Below, one piece after another: positions 6,793 to 40,695 of a stretch of DNA of 64,000 nucleotides (the stretch's first letter is position 1; every line of letters starts with the position of its first letter). This DNA is from Actinomycetota bacterium. Lineage in GTDB: Bacteria > Actinomycetota > AC-67. The notes beneath the pieces are model-generated. The model saw only the letters and a list, made by a program, of their open reading frames with translations, did no database searches and was not told where the DNA came from. The translations under genes and the position numbers were made by a program. Location: NCBI GenBank assembly GCA_046565595.1, contig JBKHYG010000121.1:330-64329 (forward strand). Direction: 5' to 3'.

Positions 6793-6798
6793 GGTCTG

Positions 6799-17960: not shown

Positions 17961-18887
17961 TCACTTCGCGTAGGAATGCAAGCCAGCGATCCAGAGGTTC
18001 ACCGCGAAGTAGGTGAACATCACCGCAGCGAACCCGACCGTGTTGATGACCGCAACGCGCGTGCCCTTCCATCCAGCCGTCGAACGGGCGTGTAGTTCCG
18101 CTGCGTAGATGACCCAGGTCACGAAGGCCCAGGTCTCTTTAGGGTCCCAACCCCAATACCGCCCCCACGCTTCGTGCGCCCAGACCGCACCGGCCAGGAC
18201 AGCGAAGGTCCAGATCGGGAAGGCGAATGCCACTGTGCGAGCCGACATGCGATCGAGAGCGAGCGACGATGGGAGGCGTGCCATCAGGCCGCTTCGCCTC
18301 GGTTCCGGGGGCAGGGCTGGGTCGATCTCGGTCTCCGGCTCGAATGTCGAAACATGGGCTGCTCCGACGGTGGATCCGATGGTCCGCCGCTCCCAGCGTC
18401 TCTTGGTGACCGTGAGCACGGTGAATAGGAAGGAGATGCCGAAGAGGGTCGAACCGATGATCGCAGCGATCACATGGAACTTCAGCCAGATCGAGTTCAG
18501 GGCGGGCACCAATTCGCGCGCCGGTACATAGACCATCCTCGCGAAGGCGAGAGAGAGGACCGCGGCGCCTAGGGCGAATCCGGCGAACTCGCGCAGTCCG
18601 AGGCGCCTATCGATCCAGAGTAGATAGACGAGCACCAACAGCAAGCCGAGCAACGATGAGTACTCGTACATATTGCCCCAAGGGACCCTGCCAGCAGCCA
18701 GGCCTCTTGCTGTGACGGATCCGAGATGGACCGCCGCTCCGAGCCAGGTGACCCCTACTGCGAGGGAACCCAGTCGGTCCTTCTTGAAGGCCAGGAACGC
18801 GAAGCTGGCGACCATCGCAACGCCGTAAGCAGCCAACGCCCACCAGAACAGCGAATCCGATAGCGCAGCCAGTCCGGTGTCGATCAC
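17961..18887 (-). CDS. ccsA: cytochrome c-type biogenesis protein CcsA/ResC (System II heme handling)
   Basis: C-terminal W-rich heme-handling motif WGWDPKETWAF. Start set to GTG 18887, which overlaps the resB stop as GTGA and follows a GGAGGG Shine-Dalgarno. The Arg-rich extension in the track was rejected. Confidence 0.8.
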   Translation of the reverse strand: MIDTGLAALSDSLFWWALAAYGVAMVASFAFLAFKKDRLGSLAVGVTWLGAAVHLGSVTARGLAAGRVPWGNMYEYSSLLGLLLVLVYLLWIDRRLGLREFAGFALGAAVLSLAFARMVYVPARELVPALNSIWLKFHVIAAIIGSTLFGISFLFTVLTVTKRRWERRTIGSTVGAAHVSTFEPETEIDPALPPEPRRSGLMARLPSSLALDRMSARTVAFAFPIWTFAVLAGAVWAHEAWGRYWGWDPKETWAFVTWVIYAAELHARSTAGWKGTRVAVINTVGFAAVMFTYFAVNLWIAGLHSYAK

Positions 18888-20353
18888 GGTACCTTCACCC
18901 CTCCTAGTGCTCGTTCGTGCCCGATCACTCGATCGATCTCCTCGACCAGCCCATCGAACTCTTCGCTGGCGGCCTGCTTGCGTTGGAAAGCGTGTCCTGC
19001 GATCTCGAGGACGGTCATGTAGCCGTCCGTCGTGGCTCGCAGCCATACACGGCGGCGGAAACCATACAGGCCTGGGATGAGCCCGACCAACATGGCGACC
19101 GCCCCTGCGAACAGCATCCAGGCGCCAGGGTTGTACCCGATCTGGAACACCGAGTATTGAACCATGTCGGAGAAGGTGATCGTGATGCCGTTGGTCAGCT
19201 CGTCGCTTCGTCCTATCCCCACGATCGAATCACCGACTCGGGTCAGTCCGGCAGGGTCGAGAGCGTAGACATTCTGCGGCTTGTCCAAACCCAGGTCACC
19301 GAGCAGCACCTGCGAGACGATGACAGGGTCGCGGGGCGCTCGGTTGCGGTCTCGCAACCCTCCCTCGGGCCCCTCGAACGGGTCGACGAAGAGTTGCATG
19401 GCGAGACCTAGTTGCTGCGGCTGTGTTCCCGGCACCTTGGCTACCCCGGTCCATGCGCCGTTGTTGGGCAGGAATACGGTGGGGCCGTCATACAGGACCC
19501 GACCCTCCTGTTCGACCTTGATCACCGGAGCCCAGCCCCAGGCGATCTGGTAGATCCTTCGGCCCTCGTACCGCAGGGGATAGTTGACGGTGATCTTCTC
19601 GTCTTCCACGATGACCTGGCCATCGGCGTCGCGCAGGGTGACGGTCGACTCGAAGTGCTTCGGGATCCCGGATGGGAACCACTCGACATCGAACTCCTCT
19701 AGACGGAGTTGGAACCCGGTATGGCGTGAGCCGAAGAAGCGTCCGGGAGAGATGGTGTCGTATTCGGTAGGCGTGTCGGTGAAGGTCGCTCCTTCGACCA
19801 CGAGGACCTGGCCGCTCGCTCCGAAGAGTCTCCCAAGGGCAACCCCGAGCAATATGACGAGGATGGAGGTGTGGAACAGCAGACTGCCCGACTCGCGCAG
19901 GTGCCCACGCTCAGCGGCTACGCCGTCGTCGATATCGACGACCTTGAATCGCCTTCGGAGCAGCACCGAGCGCGCGGACTCGAGGACCTCGCTGGGCGAG
20001 CGGGTCGTGCGCGCGCGCACATACCGTTCCTGACGCTCGAGGTCTCCGGTCGCGTGCGGATCACGACGCAGCCGTCGAAGTTGGACCCGGTATCGGCTCG
20101 TCAAGCAGCCGATCAAGGAGACCAACAGGAGCAGATAGATGGGAGTGAACCACCAAGAGCCGTAGACATCGAACAGATCGAAGAACTCCGCGACAGGCGT
20201 CCAACCCGGGTTCTTGCTCTGCCACTGGCTGACCGAACGCGCCGAGATGGCTCGCTGAGGGAACAGCGAACCCACTGCCGATCCGGCAGCCAAGAAGAAC
20301 AGCAGGATGATCGCCGTACGCATCCGCGTCAGCCCCTGCCAGGCGCGTCTCAT
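18884..20353 (-). CDS. ccsB: cytochrome c biogenesis protein ResB/CcsB
   Basis: 489 aa. N-terminal transmembrane segment, large periplasmic domain, C-terminal transmembrane segment; ResB-like. Confidence 0.8.
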   Translation of the reverse strand: MRRAWQGLTRMRTAIILLFFLAAGSAVGSLFPQRAISARSVSQWQSKNPGWTPVAEFFDLFDVYGSWWFTPIYLLLLVSLIGCLTSRYRVQLRRLRRDPHATGDLERQERYVRARTTRSPSEVLESARSVLLRRRFKVVDIDDGVAAERGHLRESGSLLFHTSILVILLGVALGRLFGASGQVLVVEGATFTDTPTEYDTISPGRFFGSRHTGFQLRLEEFDVEWFPSGIPKHFESTVTLRDADGQVIVEDEKITVNYPLRYEGRRIYQIAWGWAPVIKVEQEGRVLYDGPTVFLPNNGAWTGVAKVPGTQPQQLGLAMQLFVDPFEGPEGGLRDRNRAPRDPVIVSQVLLGDLGLDKPQNVYALDPAGLTRVGDSIVGIGRSDELTNGITITFSDMVQYSVFQIGYNPGAWMLFAGAVAMLVGLIPGLYGFRRRVWLRATTDGYMTVLEIAGHAFQRKQAASEEFDGLVEEIDRVIGHERALGGVKVP

Positions 20354-20404: not shown

Positions 20405-21154
20405 TTAGATGGCGGGCACGAAGTTGTTGGACCAGCGCAGGATCGGAGCCATCAACGAGGTCCAGAGATCGGTCACGAGCAGGATGCCGATCGCGACCAT
20501 GAAGGTGCCGCCTACGACCTGGATCTTGCGGAGGTTCCTCTTGAAGAACGAGCCACGGAGGATGCGTTCTGCTCCCAGGGACGCGAGCAGGAACCACAGA
20601 CCGAAACCGAGCGAGAAGAAGATCAGCAGAAGCGTGCCTCGGACGACCGAGCCCTCGTTCGCTGCCAGCGTCAGGATGACCCCGAGGCCCGGTCCCACGC
20701 AGGGTGTCCATCCAGCGCCGAAGGCCATCCCGAGAGGGAACGCACCGGCCATGCCGGGCTTTACGCTCTTCAAGAATGGACGCTTCTCGCGTTCCAGGAA
20801 CGGGAAGAGTCGTGGGAGGATGAAGGCCATCCCCATCACTATGACGATCACGCCGGCGATGCGGGTTATCGCCTTGAGATTGCGGGTCAGTACGGATCCC
20901 AAAGCGCTCGCCGAAGCGCCGAGCGCAGCGAAGATGACAGTGAACCCCAGGATGAACAGCAGGGTTGCGAAGATCAGGCGTTTACGGCCTTGGCCCGGTT
21001 GAGCCGCGAGTTCCTGGCCGCCAACGCCTCCCATGTACGAGAGGTATCCCGGCAACAACGGCAAGACGCAGGGCGAGAAGAACGAGACGGTGCCGACGAT
21101 GAAGGCGATCAGCGGCCCGATCGGTCCGAGCAGTGCATCCTCGACGCCGCTCAC
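20405..21154 (-). CDS. ccdA: cytochrome c-type biogenesis thiol-disulfide transporter CcdA
   Basis: Two conserved Cys in transmembrane segments (FSPCVLPLLP, GWTPCVGP). Confidence 0.8.
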   Translation of the reverse strand: MSGVEDALLGPIGPLIAFIVGTVSFFSPCVLPLLPGYLSYMGGVGGQELAAQPGQGRKRLIFATLLFILGFTVIFAALGASASALGSVLTRNLKAITRIAGVIVIVMGMAFILPRLFPFLEREKRPFLKSVKPGMAGAFPLGMAFGAGWTPCVGPGLGVILTLAANEGSVVRGTLLLIFFSLGFGLWFLLASLGAERILRGSFFKRNLRKIQVVGGTFMVAIGILLVTDLWTSLMAPILRWSNNFVPAI

Positions 21155-21750
21155 GCCTGGACCTCTCTGATCAGCCCGACCAGTTCGTCGGCAGAACGAA
21201 CCGCCCCCAGAACCTGTGCCGCGATCCTCCCCTCGGCGTCGATCACGAAGGTCGCCGGCATGACCCGAACCCCGTACGCGAACGCGATGTTGGAGTCGGG
21301 GTCGTAGATGCTCGGGTAGGACACTTCGAACTCCTCGAGGAACGCGATCGCGGCGGCCCGTTGATCGCGCCTGGTGTTGACGCCTACGAATACAACGCCC
21401 TCAGGCTCGAGACGCTTCCATGCTTCTTCCAGCCGGGGCTCTTCGAGCCTGCAGGGTCCGCACCAGGAGCCCCAGAAGTTGACGACCGCCACCTTGCCTT
21501 CGATCTGGGAGGCTGCGAAGTATCCGCTCTGAAGGGTCTCGCCTTCCAAGGCCGGAGCTTCTCGGCGATCAGATGGCGCGATCCGAGAGATGTTCGTGCC
21601 CTCGGCTACAGATATGCCAGCGATCTGGGTTCCAGAAGAGCAACTCGCCAAGGCGAGCAGCAGGAGCGCGGCGGGGCGCGGTCGGATCACACCTGGAAGG
21701 CTAACCAGGACCGGCAGTGGGCGCTCTCGGGTGGTTGGATGAGGGGTCAT
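21151..21750 (-). CDS. TlpA/ResA-family thiol:disulfide oxidoreductase lipoprotein
   Basis: Lipobox LASC and WGSWCGPC active site. Start is ATG at 21750; a GTG at ~21690 is an alternative. Confidence 0.7.
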   Translation of the reverse strand: MTPHPTTRERPLPVLVSLPGVIRPRPAALLLLALASCSSGTQIAGISVAEGTNISRIAPSDRREAPALEGETLQSGYFAASQIEGKVAVVNFWGSWCGPCRLEEPRLEEAWKRLEPEGVVFVGVNTRRDQRAAAIAFLEEFEVSYPSIYDPDSNIAFAYGVRVMPATFVIDAEGRIAAQVLGAVRSADELVGLIREVQA

Positions 21751-22288
21751 GCAGCGTTGGTTGGCGATGGTTCTGCTGGTCCTGGCGGCGTGCGCTACGG
21801 GAGGTCCGGTGGCGGACGAACTCGGGGACTGCTCCGCGCCCAAGCTCTTGAAGGAGGGCGATCGGCTGCCCGAGTGCCGCTTCGAGACGCTCGACGGATC
21901 GGAGGTCGTGGCTACTTCCGACCTGTTGGGCAAGCCGACCTTGCTGAACTTCTGGGCATCCTGGTGCCTGGCATGCCAGAAGGAGATGCCCGCACTTGAC
22001 CGGTACGCCTCGGAGACCCCGGAGGTGAGGGTGCTAGGGGTCGATGTCATCGGGCTTCAGGGCGAGTCACTCGAAGCCGGCCGCAGGTTCTTCGAGTCGA
22101 TGGGGGTTTCCTATGAGAGCCTTGCCGACCGTGACGGACGCTTCTACGGCCTCTTCGGAGCTACGGCCCGCCCCATCATGCCGTTCACGATCGTCGTAGA
22201 TGCCGAAGGGACGGTCGCCGCTCGACGATTCGGTGAGTTGACCTTCGAGGAGATCCGGACCTTGGTGGACGAAGCCCTAGCCGCCTGA
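21749..22288 (+). CDS. TlpA-family thiol:disulfide oxidoreductase lipoprotein (second, divergent paralog)
   Basis: Lipobox LAAC and WASWCLAC active site. Confidence 0.7.
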   Translation: MQRWLAMVLLVLAACATGGPVADELGDCSAPKLLKEGDRLPECRFETLDGSEVVATSDLLGKPTLLNFWASWCLACQKEMPALDRYASETPEVRVLGVDVIGLQGESLEAGRRFFESMGVSYESLADRDGRFYGLFGATARPIMPFTIVVDAEGTVAARRFGELTFEEIRTLVDEALAA

Positions 22289-22389: not shown

Positions 22390-22812
22390 GTGAACATCAC
22401 CTGGGACCCGCTCGACCCGATCCTGCTGCTGTTCGAGGGCGTTTACATCGTCATCGCCGTCGGACTGCTGCTCTGGTCGTCGAGGGTCAAGAGCGAATGG
22501 GTCCGCGCCACGCTGGCCGGACTGGGGATCTCGATCCTCGGCTTCCGTCTGCTGGCGATCATCCCCAGTTGGTGGCTCTACTTCGCCGAGGGTCGCATGG
22601 GGTGGGGCGGTCAAGGTTGCATCGAGATCACCCCGAACACCCCAGACGGCATCCAGTGTTACAAGCAGGTCGGCAAGGATCTCGTCGTCGTGATCCAGAA
22701 CGCAGTCGTCCTTGGAGGGTTCGTGGCCGCGTTCGTGTGGTGGCAGAAGAAGCACCCGAAGCAACTCGCCCCCGGTGAAGAGAAACTCGAGACCACGGGC
22801 GGATACAAGTGA
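22390..22812 (+). CDS. hypothetical membrane protein, first gene of the cytochrome b6c-like operon
   Basis: GTG start. Three to four transmembrane helices. Its stop overlaps the ferredoxin GTG start as GTGA. Confidence 0.5.
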   Translation: MNITWDPLDPILLLFEGVYIVIAVGLLLWSSRVKSEWVRATLAGLGISILGFRLLAIIPSWWLYFAEGRMGWGGQGCIEITPNTPDGIQCYKQVGKDLVVVIQNAVVLGGFVAAFVWWQKKHPKQLAPGEEKLETTGGYK

Positions 22813-23147
22813 GCGCCAAGAGCAACAAGCCGCAGTTCTACGATGACTACGACCTGCAGGTCGTCGATCCTGGATGGCTGCAGAAGCGCGTCAAGCCCAA
22901 GCGCCACATCGGTCTCGAAGCCGACCTGTGCATCCTGTGTCGCGCATGTGAAGATGTCTGTCCGTGGGATTGCATCTACATGCTCTCTGGCGACATCGTG
23001 GCGACCGCGGACCAGCCCGCGATCAAGGACGCCGCCGGCCAAGCTCATGCTGTGTTCGTGATCGATGACACCGAGTGCACGCGTTGCGGGATCTGCGTTG
23101 ACCGCTGCCCTTCTGACGCGTTGTTCTACATCCGGATGGCCCAGTAG
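22809..23147 (+). CDS. 2[4Fe-4S] dicluster ferredoxin-domain protein
   Basis: Two CxxCxxCxxxCP motifs (CILCRACEDVCP, CTRCGICVDRCP). Confidence 0.7.
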   Translation: MSAKSNKPQFYDDYDLQVVDPGWLQKRVKPKRHIGLEADLCILCRACEDVCPWDCIYMLSGDIVATADQPAIKDAAGQAHAVFVIDDTECTRCGICVDRCPSDALFYIRMAQ

Positions 23148-23177
23148 GGCTGCTGATAGAGGCAGGGGAACCGAACC

Positions 23178-23966
23178 GTGTCGACCAAGGAAGACAAGCC
23201 GCTCCTCCAGGAGCAGTTGACGCTTCTCAAGGAGAAGACGCAGGACTCACAGGTCTGGAAGTCGATCTTCCGGCCGGGGTCCTTCCTGCGCAAGGGCTAC
23301 CGCGACACCTCTCGCGATCGCGCTCTGGCGACCATGAACAATGTCCTGTACCACCTCCATCCGACCAAGGTGCGGAGGCACGGGCTCAAACTGACCTACA
23401 CCTTCTGCTTGGGTGGGCTCTCGTTCTTCCTGTTCGTGCTCCTGACCATCACGGGCATCTATCTGATGTTCTTCTACCGTCCCGCGGTGGATCTGATCAG
23501 TGCGCCGGTCTTCCAAGATATGAAGGACCTGTCGCAGGCCATCACCTTCGGCCAACTCGTTCGAAACATGCACCGTTGGGCTGCTCACCTCATGGTGTTC
23601 AGCGTGTTCCTGCACATGGCTCGGGTCTTCTATCACGGCGCGTACAAGCCCCCGCGCGAGTTCAACTGGGTGGTCGGCGTCAACCTGTTGCAGATCACCT
23701 TGCTGCTGAGTTTCACCGGCTATCTGCTGCCCTGGGACCAGTTGGCGATCTGGGCCGTGACCGTTGGTACGAACATGATGGGTTACACCCCGGTGTTCGG
23801 AAGGCAGGTGAAGTTCGTGCTCGTGGGCGGGCTAGAGGTAGGGCCCCCTACCTTGATCCGATGGTATGTGCTTCATGTGTTGGCGTTACCGTTCGTAGCC
23901 GTGTTGCTGATGGCCGTGCACTTCTGGCGCATCCGCAAGGACGGCGGGATCTCAGGTCCGCTCTAG
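23178..23966 (+). CDS. qcrB: cytochrome b6-type subunit (N-terminal four-helix half of a split cytochrome b)
   Basis: Heme-ligand His residues in helices B and D. Conserved GYLLPWDQ motif. Sized like b6 (262 aa). GTG start with an AGGGGA Shine-Dalgarno. Confidence 0.85.
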   Translation: MSTKEDKPLLQEQLTLLKEKTQDSQVWKSIFRPGSFLRKGYRDTSRDRALATMNNVLYHLHPTKVRRHGLKLTYTFCLGGLSFFLFVLLTITGIYLMFFYRPAVDLISAPVFQDMKDLSQAITFGQLVRNMHRWAAHLMVFSVFLHMARVFYHGAYKPPREFNWVVGVNLLQITLLLSFTGYLLPWDQLAIWAVTVGTNMMGYTPVFGRQVKFVLVGGLEVGPPTLIRWYVLHVLALPFVAVLLMAVHFWRIRKDGGISGPL

Positions 23967-23996
23967 GCCGATGTTGATGTATACGGGAGACTCGCT

Positions 23997-24839
23997 ATGA
24001 GCGATGAAGTCGGTCTCGATCAAGAGGTATTCGATAAGGCGATCGCCGATGGGAAGAGCGAACGCGTGGCTCGCGCGTTGGCGAAATCTGCGTGGGTTCG
24101 TAAGACGCGCGGTCCGGCCGACCCCGGCACCCCGAAGGCGGCAGCGGCCGAAGCTGGCACCCCTGAACCATCGAGCGCGGCACCCGCAGCCGGGGCGGGT
24201 GCAGCCCCTACCGCGACCGCGGTGGCTGCTCCTGCAGCCGGCTCGGTCGAGAGACTGACGCCCGAGCAGCGTGCCGCCCGCGTGGCCGCCGCGACAGGGC
24301 GCAAGGTCGACGAGAACGGCGGGGGCGGCCGCGGCTTGACCGGTGAGCAGACCCAGCGACTCCTCGCGGTGGTCCCGCCGGCCGGTATCCAGCGTGTCTC
24401 CAAGCGGCAGGACGACAAGGTCAACACCTGGCCGCATCTGATCCTCGCCGAGTTCGTCGCGATCCTGGTGATGACCGCCTTCGTCCTGGTCTTCTCGAGC
24501 TTCAAGGACGCACCCTTCCGGGAACTCGCGAACCCGAGCCTGACCCCGAACCCTTCCAAGGCTCCGTGGTACTTCCTGGGCCTGCAGGAGTTGCTGCGCT
24601 ACTTCCACCCGATGGTCGCCGGTGTGACGATCCCCGGTCTGGGCTTGTTCGCTCTTATGGCGGTTCCGTACGCGGACAAGAATCCGAGCATGCGGCCCGA
24701 CCGGCGCAAGTTGGCGATCATCTTGTTCACGATCTTCATGATGTTCTGGGCCGTCTTGACCATCGTCGGTGTCCTGTTCCGTGGCCCCGGCTACAACTTC
24801 ATCTGGCCGTGGAACGACGGCGTGTTCTTCGACCTCTAG
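23997..24839 (+). CDS. subunit IV-like (C-terminal half of split cytochrome b) with a ~140-aa Ala/Pro-rich N-terminal extension
   Basis: PEWY-region motif present as KAPWYFLGLQELL. Three C-terminal transmembrane helices. Confidence 0.8.
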   Translation: MSDEVGLDQEVFDKAIADGKSERVARALAKSAWVRKTRGPADPGTPKAAAAEAGTPEPSSAAPAAGAGAAPTATAVAAPAAGSVERLTPEQRAARVAAATGRKVDENGGGGRGLTGEQTQRLLAVVPPAGIQRVSKRQDDKVNTWPHLILAEFVAILVMTAFVLVFSSFKDAPFRELANPSLTPNPSKAPWYFLGLQELLRYFHPMVAGVTIPGLGLFALMAVPYADKNPSMRPDRRKLAIILFTIFMMFWAVLTIVGVLFRGPGYNFIWPWNDGVFFDL

Positions 24840-24849
24840 GAGTGGATGG

Positions 24850-25578
24850 ATGTTCGCGCTGACCAAAGTTCAATGGGCCGTCGCCGGGATCGCGATCCTG
24901 GTTGCGCTCGCTGGTCTAGCCCTGATGGCCGTGAACGCTCTGGCCATCCTCAGGCCACGCAAACCCGGTGAAGAGAAGACCCCCCGCAAGTTGCTGGGTC
25001 GTCCCCAGCAGCTGTCTCGTCGTGCGTTCTTCAGGCGCGTCCTAGGAGCGGGTTTCGCTCTCGCCATCACCGAAGGTTTGGCGCTGACCTCGCTGGCCTA
25101 CCTCTGGCCGAGCCAGTCAGGAGGCTTCGGCGGGAAGATCCGCCTGCCCGACAGCGCGACGACGATCAAGGAAACCATCGCACAGACCAAGCAGCCCTAT
25201 TACTTCGCACCGGGACGCGTCTATGTGGTCCGGTACGACGCCGCTGACGACGCCAACGGCATCTATACCGATGCCGGCCTGGTGTCCGACGGCCTGATGG
25301 CGCTGTACCAGCGATGCGTGCACCTCGGATGCCGCGTGCCCTTCTGCGAGACTTCCCAGTGGTTCGAGTGCCCTTGTCATGGATCGAAGTACAACAGGGC
25401 CGGAGAGTTCCGTGCCGGCCCTGCGCCCCGGGGATTGGACCGATTCCCGATCGAGGTCGCCGACGATGTCGTCACCGTCAACACCGGCGTGATCGTGACC
25501 GGCCCGCCACGAGGCACCAACACCACCGGCCAGGACCCCGAAGGCCCCTTCTGCGTCGGCGTTGGCGCAGCGGAGTGA
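24850..25578 (+). CDS. qcrA: Rieske [2Fe-2S] iron-sulfur subunit with Tat signal
   Basis: Tat motif SRRAFFRR. Rieske boxes CVHLGC and CPCHGS. Confidence 0.85.
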   Translation: MFALTKVQWAVAGIAILVALAGLALMAVNALAILRPRKPGEEKTPRKLLGRPQQLSRRAFFRRVLGAGFALAITEGLALTSLAYLWPSQSGGFGGKIRLPDSATTIKETIAQTKQPYYFAPGRVYVVRYDAADDANGIYTDAGLVSDGLMALYQRCVHLGCRVPFCETSQWFECPCHGSKYNRAGEFRAGPAPRGLDRFPIEVADDVVTVNTGVIVTGPPRGTNTTGQDPEGPFCVGVGAAE

Positions 25579-25588
25579 GGTAGACCTG

Positions 25589-26464
25589 ATGACGATCCTC
25601 GCACTCTCCTCCCGCACGACCATCGCTTTGACGGTGGCGATCGTGCTCCTGCTGATCGGCGGGCTGCTCTATGTGACGGCCCGCGGAGAGATAAAGGGCA
25701 AGCGTAAGGCTCGCATCCCTGCTGCGATGCGACCGGGTTCCTCCGATGCGGATCTCGAGAAGTCGGTCATCGAGCGGTACCTGTTGGTAGGGGCTTTGAC
25801 CGCGCTCGGTATCGCGATCTGGATGCCGCTGTACTGGCTGAAGGAGCCCTCACGGCTCGCCGGCAAGCAGCAGTTCTTCCTCGAACGCGAGGTCGCCGAA
25901 GGACAGGATCTGTACCTGAGTCTGTGTTCGACCTGCCATGGGCAGGAGGCTCAAGGCAGTCCCAGGACGGTCTTCATCGACGGCAAGCAGTTCCAGTACG
26001 CGGAGCCGCCACTCAAGTACGCCTACTCGCGCTACCGCCAGGCCGGGCGCAACGAGGAAGACATCACCCAGTTGCTTCACGACGCGATAGCACGCGGCCG
26101 CCCGGGTACCCCGATGCCTACCTGGAGCCTCGCCTACGGAGGCCCGTTGAACAGTGCTCAGGTCGAGAACATCATGCTCTGGCTGCAGAGCATCCAAGAA
26201 GACTTCCCGAAACCTGATGCGGGTGCCACTGGTGAGCAGTTGTTCGCTGCCAACTGTGCGATCTGCCACGGTAAGGAGGGTCAAGGCGCGATCGGCCCCA
26301 ACCTTCAGGTCGCCTTCGATCGACTCACGCGCGAGCAGGTCAGGACTGCCATACATGAGGGCCGCTTGAACACGAACAGGCCATCGATGCCTGCCTGGGC
26401 GGGGCTCGGAGACAGGGCTATCGAGAAGCTGATCGACTTCATAGCGAGCATCCAGAAGGGTTGA
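25589..26464 (+). CDS. qcrC: membrane-anchored diheme cytochrome c subunit
   Basis: N-terminal transmembrane helix and two CxxCH motifs (CSTCHG, CAICHG). Confidence 0.8.
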   Translation: MTILALSSRTTIALTVAIVLLLIGGLLYVTARGEIKGKRKARIPAAMRPGSSDADLEKSVIERYLLVGALTALGIAIWMPLYWLKEPSRLAGKQQFFLEREVAEGQDLYLSLCSTCHGQEAQGSPRTVFIDGKQFQYAEPPLKYAYSRYRQAGRNEEDITQLLHDAIARGRPGTPMPTWSLAYGGPLNSAQVENIMLWLQSIQEDFPKPDAGATGEQLFAANCAICHGKEGQGAIGPNLQVAFDRLTREQVRTAIHEGRLNTNRPSMPAWAGLGDRAIEKLIDFIASIQKG

Positions 26465-27264
26465 TGACGATGATCGCAGCGCTCACTCAGTTCTTCCCGC
26501 TCGCGTGCGACGGGTGTTTCAAGGGGTTCCCCGCATGGGTCGGCCTCTTCCTGCTGGTGGTGAGTCTCATCGGCAGCATCTGGGTTCTGCTCTGGTCGAA
26601 CCTTGGAGCACGGCTGGCTTATCTGGTCGTGATGGTCTCGTTGTCGGCGTTCATGATGATCTTGAGCTTGCTCTGGATGATCGGAGGACCGGGGACCACG
26701 ACCATGACGGGTCCGCGTGGACGAGAAGTGTCATGGGTGCCTTTCCTGCCGAACTCTGAATTCGCGAACGATTTCAGGGCAGAGATCGAGTCGTTCCCGA
26801 GCGGTGGGGGATGGGAACCGATCGGTACCGTGTTCCCGGGCAATGTTGACACCAACGGCGAATTCGAGGTCGTCCGTAACGATGTCGCCACCGCGCTGGC
26901 GGATCTCGCCGTCGTTCAAGGACTCGAAGCGACCGAACCGAGCGACTGGCTGTTCTACGACCAACAGAAGGGTCCTCTAACCCCGGACGAAAGGGATAAG
27001 GCGGCCGCGGCCACGGTCAAGTTCAATCAGGCCGCTTCGACCAAGCTGATCGCGGGGATCCAGATCCCGGCTACCGACAAGCATCGCGGCATGACCGTGT
27101 TCGTCTACAGGGACAAGGGTCTGGTGTTCCTGCCCTCGCTGCTGTTCCTGATCGTCAGCGTGCTCGGGTTCGTCCTTCATACCTGGCTGCTCGCACGGTA
27201 CGAGGAGGAAGAGCGCCAGCGCGAAGAGCAGATGGGAGAAGCACCCGAGCCAGCGATGGCTTAA
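26464..27264 (+). CDS. hypothetical membrane protein, last gene of the b6c-like operon
   Basis: TGATG coupling to the cytochrome c stop. Transmembrane helices at both ends with a soluble middle domain and an acidic C-terminus. Confidence 0.5.
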   Translation: MTMIAALTQFFPLACDGCFKGFPAWVGLFLLVVSLIGSIWVLLWSNLGARLAYLVVMVSLSAFMMILSLLWMIGGPGTTTMTGPRGREVSWVPFLPNSEFANDFRAEIESFPSGGGWEPIGTVFPGNVDTNGEFEVVRNDVATALADLAVVQGLEATEPSDWLFYDQQKGPLTPDERDKAAAATVKFNQAASTKLIAGIQIPATDKHRGMTVFVYRDKGLVFLPSLLFLIVSVLGFVLHTWLLARYEEEERQREEQMGEAPEPAMA

Positions 27265-27284: not shown

Positions 27285-27310
27285 GAGGCCTCGCCGTTCG
27301 GCGGGGCCTC
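27285..27310. terminator. GC-rich hairpin between convergent operons (candidate bidirectional terminator)
   Basis: GAGGCCTCGCC-(GTTC)-GGCGGGGCCTC, an 11-bp stem including one G-U pair. Confidence 0.4.
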
Positions 27311-29742: not shown

Positions 29743-30390
29743 TCAAGCGTGCTCTTCGAGCGCCTGCTTGCGCTGCTCGTGGAAGGACAGGATCTGCAAC
29801 TCCATCGAGAGGTCCACCTTGCGGACCGTGACATCTTCGGGTGTCTGCAGCGTCGTCGGCGCGAAGGACAGGATGCTCTTGACGCCCGCCGAGACGAGCC
29901 GGTCGCACGCATCCTGCGCAGATTCGGCGGGCGTTGCGATGATGCCGATCACGACCTCGCGTTCCTTGACGGTGCGCTCTAGGTCGTCGAGATCGTCCAC
30001 GACGACACTGCCGACACGGGTTCCGATGGTCTCGCTAGAAACATCGAACGCTGCTACCAGGCGGAAGCCTCGTTCATCGAATCCCGGATACGAGGCCAGG
30101 GCTCGGCCCAGGTTGCCCACGCCGACGATCGCGCAGCGCCATTGCTCGGTCAGGCCGAGCACCCGCTCGATGTGGTGGATCAGGTAGGGGATGTCATATC
30201 CGACCCCGCGGGTCCCGTACTGGCCGAGGTAGGAGAGGTCCTTCCGCACCTTGGCCGCGTTGACGCTGGTCGCCTCGGCAAGTTCCTGGCTGGAGGTGGT
30301 GTGCGCGCCGCCCTGGAGCATCTCGGTGAGAGCCTCCAGGTAAGCCGGGAGGCGGGAGACGGTTGCCTCGGGGATGGGACGGTCCCGCAT
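29743..30390 (-). CDS. rex: redox-sensing transcriptional repressor Rex
   Basis: Winged-helix N-terminus plus Rossmann fold (IVGVGNLGRAL); 215 aa. Confidence 0.9.
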   Translation of the reverse strand: MRDRPIPEATVSRLPAYLEALTEMLQGGAHTTSSQELAEATSVNAAKVRKDLSYLGQYGTRGVGYDIPYLIHHIERVLGLTEQWRCAIVGVGNLGRALASYPGFDERGFRLVAAFDVSSETIGTRVGSVVVDDLDDLERTVKEREVVIGIIATPAESAQDACDRLVSAGVKSILSFAPTTLQTPEDVTVRKVDLSMELQILSFHEQRKQALEEHA

Positions 30391-30408: not shown

Positions 30409-30426
30409 TCGTGAACGCGTTCACAA
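30409..30426. promoter_or_regulatory. Rex operator (ROP) site 1: TCGTGAACGCGTTCACAA
   Basis: 17 of 18 positions match the actinobacterial Rex consensus TTGTGAA-N4-TTCACAA. It lies 19 bp upstream of the rex start codon. Confidence 0.6.
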
Positions 30427-30535: not shown

Positions 30536-30553
30536 TAGTGAAGCCGTTCACAA
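30536..30553. promoter_or_regulatory. Rex operator (ROP) site 2: TAGTGAAGCCGTTCACAA
   Basis: One mismatch to consensus. It lies 29 bp upstream of the geranylgeranyl reductase ATG that heads the nuo gene string. Confidence 0.55.
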
Positions 30554-31992: not shown

Positions 31993-32442
31993 TTGACGCT
32001 CGTTGATTACCTGCCCATCTTGATCCTGCTCGCGATCGCAACCGCGTTCGCGGGTCTGTCGATCCTGGTCGCCTCCAAGACCGGCCCAAGGGCTCCATCC
32101 CCCGAGAAACTCGCGCCTTACGAGTGTGGCATCGAACCTGAGCGGGAGCTGGTCGAACGGTTCCCCGTGAAGTTCTACGGGATCGCGATGCTGTTCATCA
32201 TCTTCGACATCGAGATCATCTTGTTGCTGCCCTACGCGGTCATGACACGCGAGCTCGGCATCTTCGGGCTGATGGAGATGGGTGTGTTCCTGCTGCTGCT
32301 GCTCGGGGCTTACCTGTACATCCGCCGGGCGGGCGGCTTGGAATGGGAAGAAGAAGAGACCACCCTGCGGCGGCGTGTCTCGGCGCAGCTCATCCAGCGG
32401 TACAGGACACAGTCGGACAGCGGTGAGAGGCTGGGCGCCTGA
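31993..32442 (+). CDS. nuoA: NADH-quinone oxidoreductase subunit A (with a ~30-aa C-terminal extension)
   Basis: TTG start after a GGGGGAGG Shine-Dalgarno. Three transmembrane helices and the PYECG motif. Confidence 0.8.
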
Positions 32443-32921
32443 TGGGCTGGGAGCAGAACCTCCCCAACGGGATCCTCCTTACGAGCGTAGAGAAGTTCGT
32501 CCAGTGGTCTCGCGCGAATTCCCTCTGGCCGGCGACCTTCGGTCTGGCCTGCTGCGCCATCGAGATGATGGCTACCGGCGCAGCGACCCATGATCTCGCT
32601 CGGTTCGGGATGGAGGTCTTCCGGGCATCGCCGCGCCAAGCCGACCTGATGATCGTCGCCGGCCGCGTCAGCCAGAAGATGGCGCCGGTCCTCCGTCAGA
32701 TCTACGACCAGATGCCCGAGCCCAAGTGGGTCATCAGCATGGGCGTGTGTGCCACCAGCGGAGGCATGTTCAACAACTATGCGATAGTCCAAGGCGTCGA
32801 CCAGATCGTCCCCGTGGACATGTATGTGCCCGGGTGTCCCCCACGGCCCGAGATGCTGATGGACGGCATCTTGAAGTTGCACGAGCAGATCAAGGCGACC
32901 CCGCTGAAGGCGGACCGATGA
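32442..32921 (+). CDS. nuoB: NADH-quinone oxidoreductase subunit B
   Basis: Cluster N2 ligands present ([20 protein letters not shown]). Confidence 0.9.
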
Positions 32922-33478
32922 CGAGCGAAGAGTTGCTAGCGCTTTGCGCACGAGCCTCGTCCGAGGTCGGAGGCTCGCTTGAACCTGTGGATGAGCGAGG
33001 CGTGACGAGCCTGGAAGTGGCCGCGGATCGTTTGGTCGAAGTCGTCACCTGGTTCAGGGACAACGGACCCTTCGAACTTCTAGCCGACCTATCGGTGATC
33101 GACTGGCTCGGGATCAATCCTGACGAGAAGCGCTTTTGCGTGGGGTACATGCTCGCATCGCCACAGCATCCCGCACGGTTGCAACTGCGCGTCTACCTCG
33201 GGTCGCAACAGCCTAAGGTCGCTTCCTTGACCGGTCTGTGGCCGGGTGCGGATGCGCTGGAACGCGAGGCGTACGACTTCTTCGGGATCGGGTTCGAGGG
33301 CCATCCGAACCTGCGTCGCATGTTCATGCCCGACGATTGGGAGGGTCACCCTCAGCGCAAGGACTATCCCCTCGGCGGGATCGATGTTCGTTACGAGCAT
33401 GGGCAGGCTGTCACCCCACCCGATGACCGTGCGAAGCGTTCGACGACCACCTCTGGCTATCCGGGCAGGACCGCATGA
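32918..33478 (+). CDS. nuoC: NADH-quinone oxidoreductase subunit C
   Basis: ATGA coupling. NuoC 30-kDa subunit motifs. The upstream extension in the track was rejected. Confidence 0.85.
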
Positions 33479-34743
33479 GCGAGGTCTTCACCACCGGACA
33501 GGATTGGAGCGCCGCGGTCTCCGAGATCAGCGACGAGACGCTGGTCATCAACATGGGGCCGCAGCATCCGTCCACCCACGGGGTGCTCCGGTTGGTTCTC
33601 ACCCTCGACGGTGAGACGGTGATCGACGCCGACAGCGTCATCGGGTACCTACATACCGGCATCGAGAAGAACGCCGAGGTTCGTACCTGGGTCCAGGGCG
33701 TCACCTTCGTGACTCGTATGGATTACCTGTCGCCGTTCTTCAACGAGGTGGGTTACTGCCTTGCCGTCGAACAGCTGCTGGGGATCGAAGCTCCGCCACG
33801 CGCGCAGGCCATCCGCGTCCTGCTGATGGAGTTGAACAGGATCAGCAGCCACCTGGTCTGGCTGGCGACGACAGGCATGGAGCTCGGAGCGTTGTCGATG
33901 ATGCTCTACGGCTTCCGCGAGCGCGAACAACTCCTGGACATCTTCGAGCACATAACCGGCCTACGGATGAACCACGCTTTCATCAGGCCGGGCGGTCTCG
34001 TGACCGATCTTCCTGAAGGGTCGGTCGAGAAGATCGAGGAGTTCCTGGCCTCGTTCCCCGACCGTCTCGCAGAGTACGAAGGGTTGCTGACCCAGAACCC
34101 GACCTGGATCGACCGCAACCGCGGGATCGGGATCCTCGACGCTCCTACCGCTCTCGGACTCGGCGTGACCGGTCCGCTTCTACGCGCAGCAGGCGTCGAC
34201 TGGGATCTCCGCAAGCAACGCCCATACTGCGGTTATGAGAACTACGAGTTCGATGTCCCGACCGACACCGACGCCGACTGCATGGCCCGGTACCGGGTGC
34301 GTCTGGAAGAGATGCGCCAATCGATGAGGATCGTGCGGCAGGTCCTCGATTCCCTGCCCGCCGGACGGATCATGATCGAGGACCCGAAGATCGCTTGGCC
34401 AGCGCAACTGTCGCTGGGCCCGGACGGGCTCGGGAACGCTCAGGAGTACATCCGCCGGATCATGGGCGAATCGATGGAAGCGCTGATCCAGCATTTCAAG
34501 CTGGTTACCGAAGGCTTCAGCATCCCGGTCGGCGAGACGACCGTCGCGGTCGAGTCGCCCCGCGGTGAGACCTCGTTCCGTGTGGCGAGCGGAGGCAAGA
34601 ACAGGCCTTGGCGCGTCCATGTACGCGACGCCTCCTTCGTGAACCTCCAAGCGATGCCGCACATGGTCCGCGGGTTGCTGGTGGCAGATGTGATCTCGGC
34701 CGTCGCGTCGATCGACCCGGTGATGGGAGGTGTGGATCGATGA
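33475..34743 (+). CDS. nuoD: NADH-quinone oxidoreductase subunit D
   Basis: 49-kDa subunit. N-terminus [14 protein letters not shown] and C-terminus DPVMGGVDR. Confidence 0.9.
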
Positions 34744-35369
34744 GCGGTGGTGGCAAGGCGGATACATCGCTGATGGGGGTACCCCTGATCAGACCGGCCG
34801 TTGCGCCTCTCTCGGATCGGTTCCGTTCCGACGCCGACGAGGTGATCGCTAGATACCCCAAGGGCCAGGAACGCAGCGCGCTACTTCCGCTGCTCTACCT
34901 GGTCCAGGGTGAGCACGGCTTCGTCTCGAGCCAAGGCATCAGCGCCATCTCGGAGATGCTTGGCCTGACCCGAGCCGAAGTGGCGGGCGTGGCCAGCTTC
35001 TACACGATGTTCAAACGGTCGCCGCAAGGAAGATGGTTGATCAGCGTGTGTACCCAACCCGCGTGCGCGTTCGCTGGCGGGACCGAACTCATCCGGAGGT
35101 TGGAGGAGACGCTGGGCGTCGAGCGTGGAGGCACGAGCCCTGACGGCACGATCTCCATCGAAGAGGTCGAGTGTCTATGCGCCTGTGACGGCGCACCGGT
35201 GTTCAGCGTCAACTATGAGAACTACGAACGCATGGCCGTCGAGGACGCCGTGTCGATGGTCGAGTCCTTGAGATCTGGCGGCGAGCCTCCTGCGGGTGCG
35301 CGCGGTGAGATCCCGGCGGACTTCAAGACCGTGTCGCGCCGCATGAGCGGAGTGGAGGCGCCGCGATGA
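34740..35369 (+). CDS. nuoE: NADH-quinone oxidoreductase subunit E
   Basis: Thioredoxin-like [2Fe-2S] Cys ligands ([14 protein letters not shown]). ATGA coupled. Confidence 0.85.
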
Positions 35370-36649
35370 GCGCGACGCTTCAAGAGACCAAGATCCTGTC
35401 CGCCAGATGGGACCGGCCCGACGGCAACACGCTGGCCGGATACCTCGCGACCGGAGGGTACGAGGCGCTGCGCACGGCCCTCGAGATGCAGCCCGACCAG
35501 ATCATCGAGACCGTCAAAGAGTCGAACCTGCGGGGCCGCGGAGGCGCAGGATTCCCGGCTGGACTGAAGTGGTCCTTCATCCCCAAGGACCGTAGACCGT
35601 CCTACATAGTCTGTAATTTCGACGAAGGCGAGCCTGGAACTTTCAAGGACCGCGAACTGGTCGAGCGTGACCCGCACCAGATGATCGAAGGCATGGCCAT
35701 CGCATCCCTGGCGATCGGCGCACACGAGATGTACATCTTCTGCCGAGGTGAGTTCGCCTACGCCGCCCGTGTCCTCGAGCGCGCGATCGCCGAGGCGATG
35801 CAGGAGGGATATCTGGGGAAGGGGATCCTGGGAAGCGACTACGACCTGGATTGCATCCTCGTGCGCGGTGCAGGCGCATACATCTGTGGCGAGGAGACCG
35901 CGTTGCTCGAGGCGATAGAAGGCCGTCGAGGTCAACCTCGTCTCCGCCCACCGTTCCCGGCCACCCACGGACTGTTCAACCTGCCGACCGTCGTCAACAA
36001 TGTCGAGACCTTCGCATGCGTCCCCCACATCATCTCTCGGGGAGCGGAGTGGTTCCGTTCGCTGGGTACCGAGAAGGCGTCGGGAACCAAGATCTTCAGC
36101 ATCTCTGGCGATGTGGAGAAGCCGGGTAACTACGAGGTGCCCTTCGGCACATCGGCTCGAGACCTGATCGAGGGCTTCGCCGGCGGCGTTAAGGGCGGGA
36201 AGGGATTGAAGGCCTTCACCCCCGGTGGCGCATCCTCGACACCCTTCTTCGGCCCCGAGGAACTGGATGTCGGCATGGATTGGGAGTCCGTCCAAGAGGC
36301 GGGGTCCCTCCTTGGTACCGGCGCGATCATCGTCTTCTCCGAGGACAGGTGCATGGTACGAGCGGCCCATCGTTACACGCGTTTCTACGCGCACGAGTCA
36401 TGCGGCAAGTGCACGCCATGCCGCGAAGGGACCTACTGGCTCGAGCAGACGCTCCGTCGGTTCGAGGCAGGCGGAGGACGGGAGGATGACCTCCCGATCT
36501 TGCTGGATGTCGCCAACAGCATCCCGGGGCGTTCGTTCTGTGCGCTCGGTGACTTCTCTGCCGCACCGGTCACTTCGACCGTGAGGCGCTGGGAGGCCGA
36601 TTTCCGCAAACACATTGGCAGCGGGGGAGGCTGCCCGATCGAACCATGA
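35366..36649 (+). CDS. nuoF: NADH-quinone oxidoreductase subunit F
   Basis: FMN/NADH motifs (GRGGAGFP). 4Fe-4S ligands CGKCTPCREG. Confidence 0.9.
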   Translation: MSATLQETKILSARWDRPDGNTLAGYLATGGYEALRTALEMQPDQIIETVKESNLRGRGGAGFPAGLKWSFIPKDRRPSYIVCNFDEGEPGTFKDRELVERDPHQMIEGMAIASLAIGAHEMYIFCRGEFAYAARVLERAIAEAMQEGYLGKGILGSDYDLDCILVRGAGAYICGEETALLEAIEGRRGQPRLRPPFPATHGLFNLPTVVNNVETFACVPHIISRGAEWFRSLGTEKASGTKIFSISGDVEKPGNYEVPFGTSARDLIEGFAGGVKGGKGLKAFTPGGASSTPFFGPEELDVGMDWESVQEAGSLLGTGAIIVFSEDRCMVRAAHRYTRFYAHESCGKCTPCREGTYWLEQTLRRFEAGGGREDDLPILLDVANSIPGRSFCALGDFSAAPVTSTVRRWEADFRKHIGSGGGCPIEP

Positions 36650-38979: not shown

Positions 38980-40142
38980 ACGAGGGCCTGCTCATCTCGA
39001 CCATCAAAGCCGTGATCGTCTTCGGAGCCCTGATGGGATCCGTACCTCTGGCCGTATGGGCTGAGCGCCGGGTCGTCGCCTTCATGCAGCAGCGGCTCGG
39101 ACCTAACCGCGTAGGGCCTTTCGGCATCCTTCAAGGCCTCGCCGATGGCGTGAAGCTCTTCTTCAAGGAGGACATCCGGCCGACCAATGTGGACAGAGGC
39201 ACCTACATCGCGGCGCCCATGATGTCGGTGATCCCGGCCTTCCTGTCAGCAGCGGTGATCCCCTTCGGTCCAGACATCACGATCGGCGGCCGTGTCGTCT
39301 CGATGCAACTGGCCGAACTGAATGTGGGCGTGTTGTTCTTCCTGGCGATGGGAAGCATGATGGTCTACGGCGTAACGCTGGCCGGTTGGTCGTCTGGCTC
39401 GGTCTATCCGCTGCTCGGTGGCGTCCGCAGCGCCGCACAGATGATCTCCTACGAGATGGCGCTTGGCCTCTCGGTGGTCGCTGTGGTGATGCAGTCGGGA
39501 ACCTTGTCGACCTCGGGGATCGTGGACGCCCAAGCGGGCTCCTTCCTGGGAGTCCTTCCTGCGTGGAACATCTTCACCCAGCTGCCGGCTTTCCTGATCT
39601 TCTGCGTGGCGGGTCTGGCTGAGACGAACCGAGCTCCCTTCGATCTGGCAGAAGCCGAGAGTGAGCTCGTCGGCGGCTTCCATACCGAGTACTCGAGCAT
39701 CAAGTTCGCGATGTTCATGCTGGCCGAGTACCTACATGTCATCACCACGAGCGCGATCGCGGTGACCTTGTTCCTCGGCGGCTGGCGCGGACCCACGCTG
39801 CCCTTCCTGACACCGCTGTGGCCGCTCGTCTGGTTCGGGCTGAAGCTCGGCTTCATGGTGTTCCTGTTCATGTGGGTGCGCGCAAGCCTTCCACGGGTCC
39901 GCTACGACATCCTCATGCGGTACGGATGGAAGACCCTGCTGCCCGCATCGCTGGGCTGGGTTGCCATCACCGCGGTCCTGCTGGTCCTGAGTTCGGAACT
40001 CGATCGGCCAACGCTCGCCTCCGTCCTCGGCTTGATCGCGGCACTGGTGATCCTGGGGCGTGCCGCGCTTGTGACCTGGCGTCGGTTCGGCACGCTAGGA
40101 CCCCTAGCCCTGATGAGGAAGGTGCGTCATGGCGTTCAGTGA
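38976..40142 (+). CDS. nuoH: NADH-quinone oxidoreductase subunit H
   Basis: NuoH/ND1 signature ([23 protein letters not shown]). Confidence 0.9.
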
Positions 40143-40695
40143 CATCGCAAGAGGGATGTCGATCGTCGCACGGCACCTCTTCAAGAAGCCGGTGACCAAG
40201 AGCTATCCCGAAGACCCCAAGGACCCGTCCCCGCGTTACCACGGTCGTCATGTCCTGAACAGGTATGAGGATGGCCTCGAGCGCTGCATCGGGTGCGAAC
40301 TGTGCGCTTGGGCATGTCCGGCCGACGCCATATTCGTGGAGAGCGCCGAGAACTCTCCGGAGGAGCGGTACTCGCCAGGCGAACGGTACGCGATCGACTA
40401 CCAGATCTCTTACGCGCGGTGCATCTTCTGTGGCCTGTGCATCGAAGCCTGCCCGACGCGCGCACTCACCATGTCGACCGAGTACGAACTGGCCGGACCG
40501 AGCCGCGAGGCTCTCGTCTACACAAAGGGCATGTTGCTGGCCGCACCCAACGAGGGAGCGGCGCCGACACCTCACACCGACGCCGAGGTCCAGGCGAGAG
40601 GCATCGACTACTACGGCGGACCGCAGGCGACCGACCCCCTGGCGTCTTCTGAGCGCGCAGAGCATCTACCTCCGCCGGAACCGGGGGCGCCCTGA
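40129..40695 (+). CDS. nuoI: NADH-quinone oxidoreductase subunit I
   Basis: Two CxxCxxCxxxCP motifs. Confidence 0.9.

Follow-up and report, generated by a model that had tools for sequence, protein, structure and literature searches.

Split cytochromes b have already been described in deep-branching Actinobacteria, including Ilumatobacter of the Acidimicrobiia, in the work that defined the APWY clade of these proteins (Kao & Hunte 2014, PMC4122944). That study places Ilumatobacter in the APWY clade or in the PEWY-cytochrome c clade, leaving unstated which one. In anammox bacteria, potentials above +300 mV were measured for two Rieske proteins; in AlphaFold3 models, the iron-sulfur (FeS) chain of an NAD(P) reductase faces cytochrome b on its n-side, and a further heme b is predicted, to which each monomer contributes a ligand His from its cytochrome b N-extension (Hauser et al. 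2025, PMC12954380). The case for NAD(P)H-generating bifurcation in these organisms so far rests on such Rieske potentials, complexome co-migration and AlphaFold3 models (PMC12954380). Here we analyze a seven-gene operon on a stretch of 64,000 nucleotides (nt), called the window below, from an Actinomycetota bacterium (contig JBKHYG010000121.1, positions 330 to 64,329 of the forward strand; assembly GCA_046565595.1). The operon, at 22390-27264 of the window, combines a split b6-type core with a ferredoxin and two orphan membrane proteins. We suggest, with a probability of roughly 55%, that it encodes the menaquinol:cytochrome c complex III of its lineage (Acidimicrobiia, Nitriliruptoria and related Actinomycetota), together with an n-side FeS module wired to hemes bH/ci.

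High numbers of Acidimicrobiia and related bacteria live in oceans, soils and activated sludge, and studies of metagenome-assembled genomes (MAGs) score the complex III of Acidimicrobiia as ordinary (PMC12008989). The core of the operon and its split cytochrome b are already known. What appears to be undescribed is that a stand-alone ferredoxin and a pair of orphan membrane proteins are fixed parts of the operon in two actinobacterial classes, and that this ferredoxin is homologous to the anammox-type module. A full-text search, outside which lie the operon maps of the 2013 Rieske/cytochrome b surveys, found no published description of the operon's ferredoxin or membrane genes. Those surveys, by Dibrova et al. 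and by ten Brink et al., are said to map the operons of many Rieske/cytochrome b clusters and may already depict the ferredoxin.

Gene content, conservation and core subunits

The seven genes (g1 to g7) and the hairpin that follows them are listed here, with product lengths in amino acids (aa).

22390-22812, + strand: g1, 140-aa orphan membrane protein, GTG start
22809-23147, + strand: g2, 112-aa NuoI-like 2[4Fe-4S] protein
23178-23966, + strand: g3, 262-aa cytochrome b6
23997-24839, + strand: g4, 280-aa subunit IV
24850-25578, + strand: g5, 242-aa Rieske protein, ATG start
25589-26464, + strand: g6, 291-aa diheme class-I cytochrome c, ATG start
26464-27264, + strand: g7, 266-aa orphan membrane protein, ATG start
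27285-27310, between the convergent g7 and hemD-cobA: GC-rich hairpin with an 11-bp stem

This order, which a first-pass annotation made from the bare sequence had proposed, is borne out by the open reading frames (ORFs), by a G+C content at third codon positions (GC3) of 0.77-0.84 in all seven, and by domain searches. The coordinates are identical to the NCBI PGAP calls (MFP5225761-66, locus tags ACLGH3_09475-09505; the source is a MAG), the Rieske gene starting at ATG 24850 rather than at the ORF-maximal GTG 24769 and the cytochrome c gene at ATG 25589, not TTG 25562. The same annotation had described all seven genes as translationally coupled, which holds at two of the six junctions: a GTGA overlap joins the g1 stop to the g2 start, and a TGATG overlap links g6 to g7. 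At the other four, gaps of 10-30 nt separate the genes and a GGAG-like ribosome-binding site (RBS) precedes each downstream one. A sigma-70 promoter scan of the operon returned no promoters, and terminator-like sites occurred at background rate only. The hairpin 3' of g7 probably marks the operon end; the whole 59-nt stretch between g7 and hemD-cobA folds at -30.7 kcal/mol (z = -3.0 against shuffles).

Close relatives of g3 turned up in at least 599 genomes in a one-genome-per-species scan, and the conservation counts reported here use the best 80 of these loci, each carrying +/-8 kb around the g3 relative. All 80 are from Actinomycetota: Acidimicrobiia (among them Ilumatobacteraceae, Microthrixaceae, Ferrithrix and the isolate Salinilacustrithrix flava), Nitriliruptoria (Egibacteraceae) and unclassified MAGs. 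Comparison of synteny in related genomes, which had been recommended along with the initial description, revealed that the ferredoxin, b6, subunit IV, Rieske and cytochrome c genes are colinear in these loci wherever the contig is long enough (tblastn). The ferredoxin gene g2 was recovered in 79 of the 80 and g7, directly after cytochrome c, in 69 (iterative hidden Markov model searches on ORFs), while g1 lies directly upstream of the ferredoxin in 78 (jackhmmer); every missing g1, g2 or g7 is a case where the contig ends before the gene. The ferredoxin and the flanking membrane genes are thus conserved together with those for b6, subunit IV and Rieske protein. The flanks vary: a geranylgeranyl reductase gene (-) precedes and nuoA (+) follows the block in Acidimicrobiia, ResB-CcdA (-) and Rex (-) enclose it in another group, and the window differs again. 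Because the seven-gene block stays constant while its flanks change, it behaves as one inherited unit.

Identity to the window proteins is 68-78% for b6 (94% in one near-identical locus), 38-66% for the ferredoxin, which is similar to the Rieske protein in this respect, and 24-47% for cytochrome c (25-37% on its own), g7 and g1. This gives a ranking of b6, then the core of subunit IV, then ferredoxin and Rieske protein at about the same level, and finally cytochrome c, g7 and g1.

Since many spurious ORFs arise in high-GC DNA, and several database 'fusion' proteins of this family are frameshift garbage, one might suspect the split in cytochrome b of arising from misassembly or a frameshift, and the small ORFs of being there by chance. 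However, the split sits at the canonical b6/subunit IV boundary and is found in all 80 loci; the RBSs and all seven ORFs recur with it in these independent genomes, and both the GC3 values and the agreement with PGAP speak for real genes. The b6 half is genuine rather than a frameshift fragment: it ends in ...RKDGGISGPL like cyanobacterial b6, and subunit IV has its own RBS and ATG. We give the artefact explanation practically no credence. Apparent fusions of g1 to the ferredoxin (P0339, P0341, P0347, P0354) and of the ferredoxin to b6 (P0314, P0349) were rejected, as each decays into Arg/Ala-rich out-of-frame text and comes from a frameshifted assembly.

The four core products are those originally named, namely a four-helix, b6-like half of 262 aa, a subunit IV half, a Rieske protein with a twin-arginine translocation (Tat) motif and a diheme cytochrome c, as Pfam and NCBIfam searches agree. 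The b6 protein g3 matches Pfam Cytochrome_B (137.6 bits, E 5.6e-40) and aligns end to end, through its C-terminal motif, with cyanobacterial b6 (PetB) at 42% identity. Its H132/H146 and H233/H248 align on the heme-ligand positions of PetB (bL, bH); all four are conserved across the 80 relatives, and H132 and H146 are also invariant in a six-sequence alignment. An FCLGG lies opposite the YCLGG of PetB, the heme ci/cn motif, and Cys77, found in 80 of 80, is predicted from this motif to bind heme ci covalently. The cytoplasmic N-extension of g3, a basic segment of about 50 residues, is almost invariant across the actinobacterial family (W27, SIFRPGS, R38, G40, Y41, D43, R46, R48, H59-L-H61-P, R67 and H68 are conserved). 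With a count of 15 K/R in 80 residues, the N-extension is complementary in charge to g2, which is net acidic.

Subunit IV (g4) has a core of three transmembrane (TM) helices, matches Cytochrom_B_C (E 8.7e-10) and finds PetD and the C-terminal half of cytochrome b in the PDB. Its Qo motif is APWY, and KAPWYF occurs in 72 of 72 relatives. Residues 1-140 (23997-24420) form an Ala/Pro-rich, low-complexity and variable cytoplasmic N-extension, similar in length among relatives, within which short stretches are conserved, for instance RLL...QRV immediately ahead of the first helix.

The Rieske protein g5 consists of a TM helix, a K/R-rich loop with SRRAFF (Tat), a second TM helix and a periplasmic domain. 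The twin arginine is present in 69 of 69 aligned relatives, and the cluster boxes CVHLGC (70/70) and CPCHGS(KY) (71/71) are conserved throughout. Ser179 (71/71) and Tyr181 (70/71) make up the pair associated with high-potential Rieske proteins. The best curated models are of PetC type, and the top PDB matches include the anammox Rieske proteins 9rk4 and 9rk3. The cytochrome c g6 has two class-I domains, with CxxCH motifs starting at residues 113 and 223, and an N-terminal TM hairpin as anchor. Two CxxCH motifs are found in about 49-51 of its ~70 relatives, one in 19 and none in 1; evidently, the high-potential exit of the complex differs between lineages. This family is the most variable core part, ranging from ~220 to ~500 aa and longest in some Acidimicrobiia.

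The beginnings of g5 (24850-25100) and g6 (25589-25830) share one layout, a TM helix and K/R-rich loop followed by a second TM helix and the periplasmic domain, from which a translocated N-terminus would follow and, for the Rieske protein, a combined Sec/YidC and Tat insertion. Two helices in g5 compare with three in other known actinobacterial Rieske proteins, and relatives of both g5 and g6 have longer N-termini.

The ferredoxin, the orphan membrane proteins and the genomic surroundings

That the operon includes a 2[4Fe-4S] ferredoxin is supported by two Fer4 matches (Pfam E 7.7e-14), by two CxxCxxCxxxCP motifs whose eight Cys are all invariant, and by its presence in nearly every locus. The motifs of g2 are separated by an insert of ~35 residues, and a conserved Y..Y....VD..WL segment precedes them. 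The protein has no signal peptide and is presumably cytoplasmic. Against NuoI models (TIGR01971 / PRK05888) it reaches 42.4 bits, below the cutoff of 113, and it shares 29% identity with the NuoI encoded in the window itself. Its family is small: 588 word-index matches, all of 103-162 aa and carrying generic names, and 86 clusters at E<=1e-10 among 1.84e9 representatives.

Outside this family, g2 comes closest, among the same representatives, to dicluster domains at the C-terminal end of NAD(P) oxidoreductases (Fer4_20 + Pyr_redox_2 + Fer4). We examined ten single-stretch matches in which the protein differed from the ~110-140-aa family or exceeded it in length. Five of them (P0417, P0425, P0404, P0356 and P0366) are C-terminal dicluster domains behind Pyr_redox_2, in P0417 and P0425, which are full-length, with an N-terminal Fer4_20 as well; P0396 and P0405 look like fragments of Pyr_redox_2-dicluster genes, and P0327 belongs to the g2 family itself, with a frameshift. 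Aligned with the C-terminal dicluster domain in P0417, g2 is 40% identical over 81 aa (E 6e-17), a stretch that covers both clusters and the insert. In three of six readable neighborhoods, the oxidoreductase gene (P0417, P0404, P0366) is immediately upstream of Rieske and cytochrome b genes (L081, L082 and L084). In L081 and L084, cytochrome b matches g3 at 55-56% identity, compared with 42% for PetB, and has in common with g3/g4 the APWY motif and the N-terminal motifs VW(K/R)SIFR and LHLH(P/A). Both g2 and b6 are therefore homologous to components of clusters linked to NAD(P) oxidoreductases, and this homology connects the operon to anammox-type complexes. Judged by sequence comparison, g2 is a free-standing version of the membrane-proximal FeS module of those complexes.

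The L081 locus, from an uncultured organism (2-6842), has a tandem pair of NAD(P) oxidoreductase genes, each with a g2-like dicluster domain at its end; next come genes for a Rieske protein, a fused cytochrome b of 529 aa extended by additional C-terminal helices, and a cytochrome c of 760 aa that matches several Pfam domains of cytochrome c type. The fused cytochrome b has WGLGG instead of CxGG and thus no heme ci cysteine.

The two flanking membrane genes, as first noticed, are real and travel with the core (78 and 69 of the 80 loci). The product of g1 has three predicted TM helices in an N-out/C-in orientation (positive-inside rule, hydropathy) and corresponds to an NCBI hypothetical protein of the same length. 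That of g7 comprises two TM helices, an alpha/beta domain of ~146 aa, which is probably periplasmic, a third TM helix and an acidic tail. Neither matched a Pfam or NCBIfam model, and the predicted structure of g7, confident with a mean predicted local distance difference test (pLDDT) score of 85.6, had no match in the PDB. Close relatives of g7 keep the consensus PLACDGCF around its CxxC (ACDGCF, residues 15-18, 26506-26517), which the wider family does not. In g1, a Cys pair, C77...C90 (22618-22659), lies in a presumed periplasmic loop and is not conserved.

It could be argued that g1, g2 and/or g7 are not stable subunits or carriers, but co-transcribed biogenesis or stability factors acting, for example, in heme ci attachment, in Tat/Sec insertion of the Rieske protein and cytochrome c, or in supercomplex assembly, with the ferredoxin serving as a reductant during maturation only. 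Organisms that have heme ci and lack chloroplast-type CCB factors must attach the heme somehow; moreover, g1 and g7 are fast-evolving, with few invariant positions and no recognisable fold or family, and cytochrome c maturation genes adjoin the operon in the window and in one locus group. On the other hand, g2 is strongly conserved, its non-cluster surfaces included, and is homologous to a domain of a subunit-type protein in related clusters. The gene order interleaves g1, g2 and g7 with structural genes, their coupling suggests stoichiometric production, and the Pfam models that g1 and g7 fail to match include CCB1. We regard a role restricted to biogenesis as quite unlikely and continue to favor a complex III with an attached FeS module.

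The operon lies in a respiratory island. Upstream are ResB, CcdA and two TlpA-like thioredoxins; downstream come hemD-cobA, hemC and rex, then a MenJ-like geranylgeranyl reductase gene and a complete nuoA-N operon. The upstream genes for System II cytochrome c maturation are divergent from the block (ResB 18884-20353 and CcdA 20405-21154, both on the - strand). One of the thioredoxin genes is also on the - strand; the second, with a lipoprotein-like signal, is at 21749-22288 (+), occurs at one other locus only (L002) and is thus outside the conserved block. The nuoA-N operon extends over 31993-46385 and includes the genuine nuoI (40129-40695). Another nuoA-like gene (60437-60850), near the window's end, and a gene for a NuoD-like/49-kDa protein (61852-63057), with one ORF between them, may belong to a second complex I-like enzyme. 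In the loci of Acidimicrobiia (L004, L016, L026-L080), nuoA follows the block directly on the same strand and the MenJ-like geranylgeranyl reductase gene often precedes it; the genes for complex III and complex I may form one super-operon there. Two Rex-operator-like palindromes, TCGTGAACGCGTTCACAA (30409-30426) and TAGTGAAGCCGTTCACAA (30536-30553), each with one mismatch to TTGTGAA-N4-TTCACAA, sit between rex (29743-30390, -) and the geranylgeranyl reductase and nuo genes (+). A search of the window allowing up to 3 mismatches, in which 0.5 chance matches are expected, found no such operator upstream of g1.

Possible electron paths

In the complex that we propose, quinol would be oxidised at a Qo site that b6 and subunit IV build with the Tat-inserted Rieske protein. 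One electron would reach a terminal oxidase by way of the Rieske cluster and the membrane-anchored diheme cytochrome c, and the other would run through hemes bL and bH to the n-side, where heme ci (Cys77) would sit at the quinone-reduction site. The ferredoxin g2 would be located on the cytoplasmic face, held by the basic N-extension of b6, and its two clusters would form a wire linking the cytoplasm with hemes bH/ci. Because the C-terminus of g1 is predicted to be cytoplasmic and its gene is coupled to that of g2, g1 may help to anchor g2. As for g7, it could be a p-side accessory subunit beside cytochrome c. The complex would run a normal Q cycle with a side branch, by which a very low-potential electron from Qo bifurcation might exit to a ferredoxin-level acceptor. 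The quinone of Actinobacteria is menaquinone. Taken together with the Ser/Tyr pair of the Rieske protein, and under the symmetric-potential rule (PMC12954380), this predicts b hemes of very low potential, low enough for [4Fe-4S] reduction, and b hemes of such low predicted potential would favor an outward direction of the side branch.

It would be tempting to go further and see in the operon a quinol-based electron-bifurcating respiratory machine in ordinary aerobes, in which menaquinol and a high-potential Rieske protein would drive the low-potential electron via bL, bH/ci and possibly an inter-monomer heme at His59 to the bound ferredoxin, so that respiration would yield (or, in reverse, consume) ferredoxin-level reductant. 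We consider this extension doubtful, though possible. If it were true, the operon would offer a minimal, culturable and genetically simple model both for the NAD(P)H complexes of anammox bacteria and for the ferredoxin-heme cn route of b6f.

Several points weigh against a module wired to the b hemes with an outward branch. The ferredoxin has no flavin or NAD(P) domain. Genes of the Fer4_20/Pyr_redox_2/Fer4 architecture also occur away from Rieske/cytochrome b genes (L083, L086 and L087), and therefore the homology of g2 is by itself no proof of n-side docking. The single-chain AlphaFold2 model of g2, built on a 44-sequence alignment, is unusable (mean pLDDT 50.4). The potential class of the Rieske protein is predicted from two residues only. 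Furthermore, the operon may encode the only complex III of these organisms, and the sole complex III of aerobes cannot export every second electron; in that case the branch would have to be minor or regulated. Finally, it is from synteny that we infer the physical association of g1, g2 and g7 with the core, and contact between FeS clusters and hemes, like the direction of electron flow, would follow from that association and from the predicted potentials. This also bears on the earlier proposal of a lineage-specific variant of complex III with extra subunits: the conserved block upholds the variant, and 'extra subunits' is a reading of gene order.

The same architecture could also carry electrons inward, which is the main rival to an outward branch. 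Soluble low-potential donors (ferredoxin that has been reduced by 2-oxoacid:ferredoxin oxidoreductases or FNR) would then feed g2 and through it heme ci and menaquinone at Qi. This direction is thermodynamically downhill, a protein of the NuoI type is a wire usable either way, and the invariant heme ci Cys means that the Qi-side heme is kept alongside the ferredoxin; electron donation from ferredoxin to heme cn has also been discussed for b6f (PMC5600118). If true, the operon would be a hard-wired version of the ferredoxin-to-heme cn route long postulated for cyclic electron flow in b6f. However, an inward flow leaves the high-potential-type Rieske protein and the APWY Qo site without an evident purpose, the operon has no linked donor gene, and complex I is present, with a full nuo operon in the same window. 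For the related anammox complexes, such a flow was judged wasteful (PMC12954380). Thus, we rate it as unlikely and retain the complex III with an outward side branch as the preferred reading.

Whichever way electrons move, the operon suits tests of electron exchange between complex III and the cytoplasm, and these can be done in cultured aerobes. If the ferredoxin is bound beside heme ci, it would be a natural test of the 20-year-old question of whether the extra n-side heme of b6-type complexes is a gateway for ferredoxin electrons. In that case, models of respiratory efficiency and reductant supply would also need revision for a large part of the phylum.

Comparison with known Rieske/cytochrome b complexes

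By motif and identity, the core is best read as a b6-type complex of the 'APWY' group (subfamily G of Dibrova et al.), whose motifs it has: APWY, a split cytochrome b with CxGG and a high-potential-type Rieske signature. In the published phylogeny, this group brings together sequences from delta-proteobacteria, planctomycetes, Nitrospirae and Chloroflexi. The first-pass annotation had called a split cytochrome b unexpected for actinobacteria. This part does not stand, the split having been published for Ilumatobacter (PMC4122944); its companion claim, that the core differs from the actinobacterial QcrCAB, does. An identity with QcrCAB was rejected on the scores against the cutoffs of the QcrB, QcrA and QcrC models (NF050120 114.2/500, NF050121 32.1/275 and NF050122 47.6/200, in this order) and on the split itself. 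With the QcrCAB of Mycobacterium, Corynebacterium and Streptomyces, the operon shares its presumed role, its phylum, a diheme cytochrome c and a multi-TM, Tat-dependent Rieske protein. In contrast, QcrB is unsplit, ~540 aa long, without heme ci and with PDWY, and QcrC is anchored at its C-terminus.

The menaquinol-oxidising b6c complexes of Firmicutes and heliobacteria (Bacillus QcrABC, Heliobacterium PetABCD) are likewise split, bear heme ci and come from Gram-positive organisms. In Bacillus, however, subunit IV and cytochrome c form one fused protein, the Qo motif reads PDWY and the potential of the Rieske protein is low (PMC4122944); these clusters have no ferredoxin gene and no equivalent of g1 or g7, and g3 scores 197/325 bits on the b6 model PRK03735. 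The b6f complex of cyanobacteria and chloroplasts is similar in its split boundary, in b6 sequence (the 42% identity given above), in the Cys of CxGG, in its PetC-like Rieske protein and in having small extra membrane subunits. It differs in having PEWY rather than APWY and cytochrome f, which the operon lacks; g1 and g7 are unrelated to PetG, L, M and N, the long N-extensions of b6 and subunit IV and the 2-TM Rieske protein are peculiar to the operon in this comparison, and the contact of b6f with ferredoxin/FNR is transient and debated, with no bound ferredoxin subunit. As for the ferredoxin itself, g2 resembles the NuoI/TYKY subunits in its two CxxCxxCxxxCP motifs, the long insert, a strand before the clusters and the proposed role of an FeS wire on a membrane complex, whereas its N-terminal segment is specific to its own family and its gene is outside the nuo operon.

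The closest curated b6 model is that of Geobacter ExtP, from the extHIJKLMNOPQS cluster, whose ExtOPQ comprise a Rieske protein, a split b6-like protein of ~205 aa and a subunit IV-like membrane protein (PMC5877670). On this model (NF040969), g3 scores 293.9 bits with a cutoff of 290, and many homologues of g3 bear the ExtP name at NCBI, which raises the question of whether the operon is an ExtP/ExtQ-type 'selenite/tellurite reduction' module that feeds extracellular or metalloid acceptors instead of a complex III. However, g4 reaches only 52.7 on the ExtQ model (cutoff 150); the rhodanese ExtH, the porin ExtI and the 5-, 10- and 12-heme cytochromes ExtKL, ExtN and ExtM (PMC5877670) are absent from the 64-kb window; and the genes around the operon are for heme synthesis, cytochrome c maturation and complex I, while the Geobacter cluster has no ferredoxin. 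We consider such a module highly improbable. The name 'selenite/tellurite reduction operon b-type cytochrome ExtP' on actinobacterial b6 proteins (P0028, P0032, P0043 and others) is an over-call, and we flag it as a systematic mis-annotation.

The nearest parallel to the operon as a whole is with the anammox-type complexes (Kuenenia Kuste4569-4574 and Kustd1480-1485; Kartal et al., de Almeida et al. 2016, Hauser et al. 2025). These also have a b6-like cytochrome b of the APWY group and a Rieske protein with the Ser (and Tyr/Phe) signature, and their FeS gene is directly upstream of the core genes. Together with the L081, L082 and L084 clusters, they share with the operon a cytochrome b N-extension with an invariant His and an n-side 2[4Fe-4S] module homologous to g2. 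The differences are several. In the operon the module is a stand-alone protein of 112 aa without Fer4_20, FAD or NAD(P) domains, and a domain survey of the window found no Pyr_redox or Fer4_20 gene in or beside the operon. A diheme class-I cytochrome c takes the place of the hexa-/octaheme protein or HAO of anammox clusters; the order is fdx-b6-IV-Rieske-c, against oxidoreductase-Rieske-b; and two orphan membrane proteins have been added. The hosts, moreover, are mostly aerobic, heterotrophic Actinomycetota. If the ferredoxin is indeed bound beside heme ci, these bacteria would offer an aerobic, cultivable counterpart of the anammox Rieske/cytochrome b complexes.

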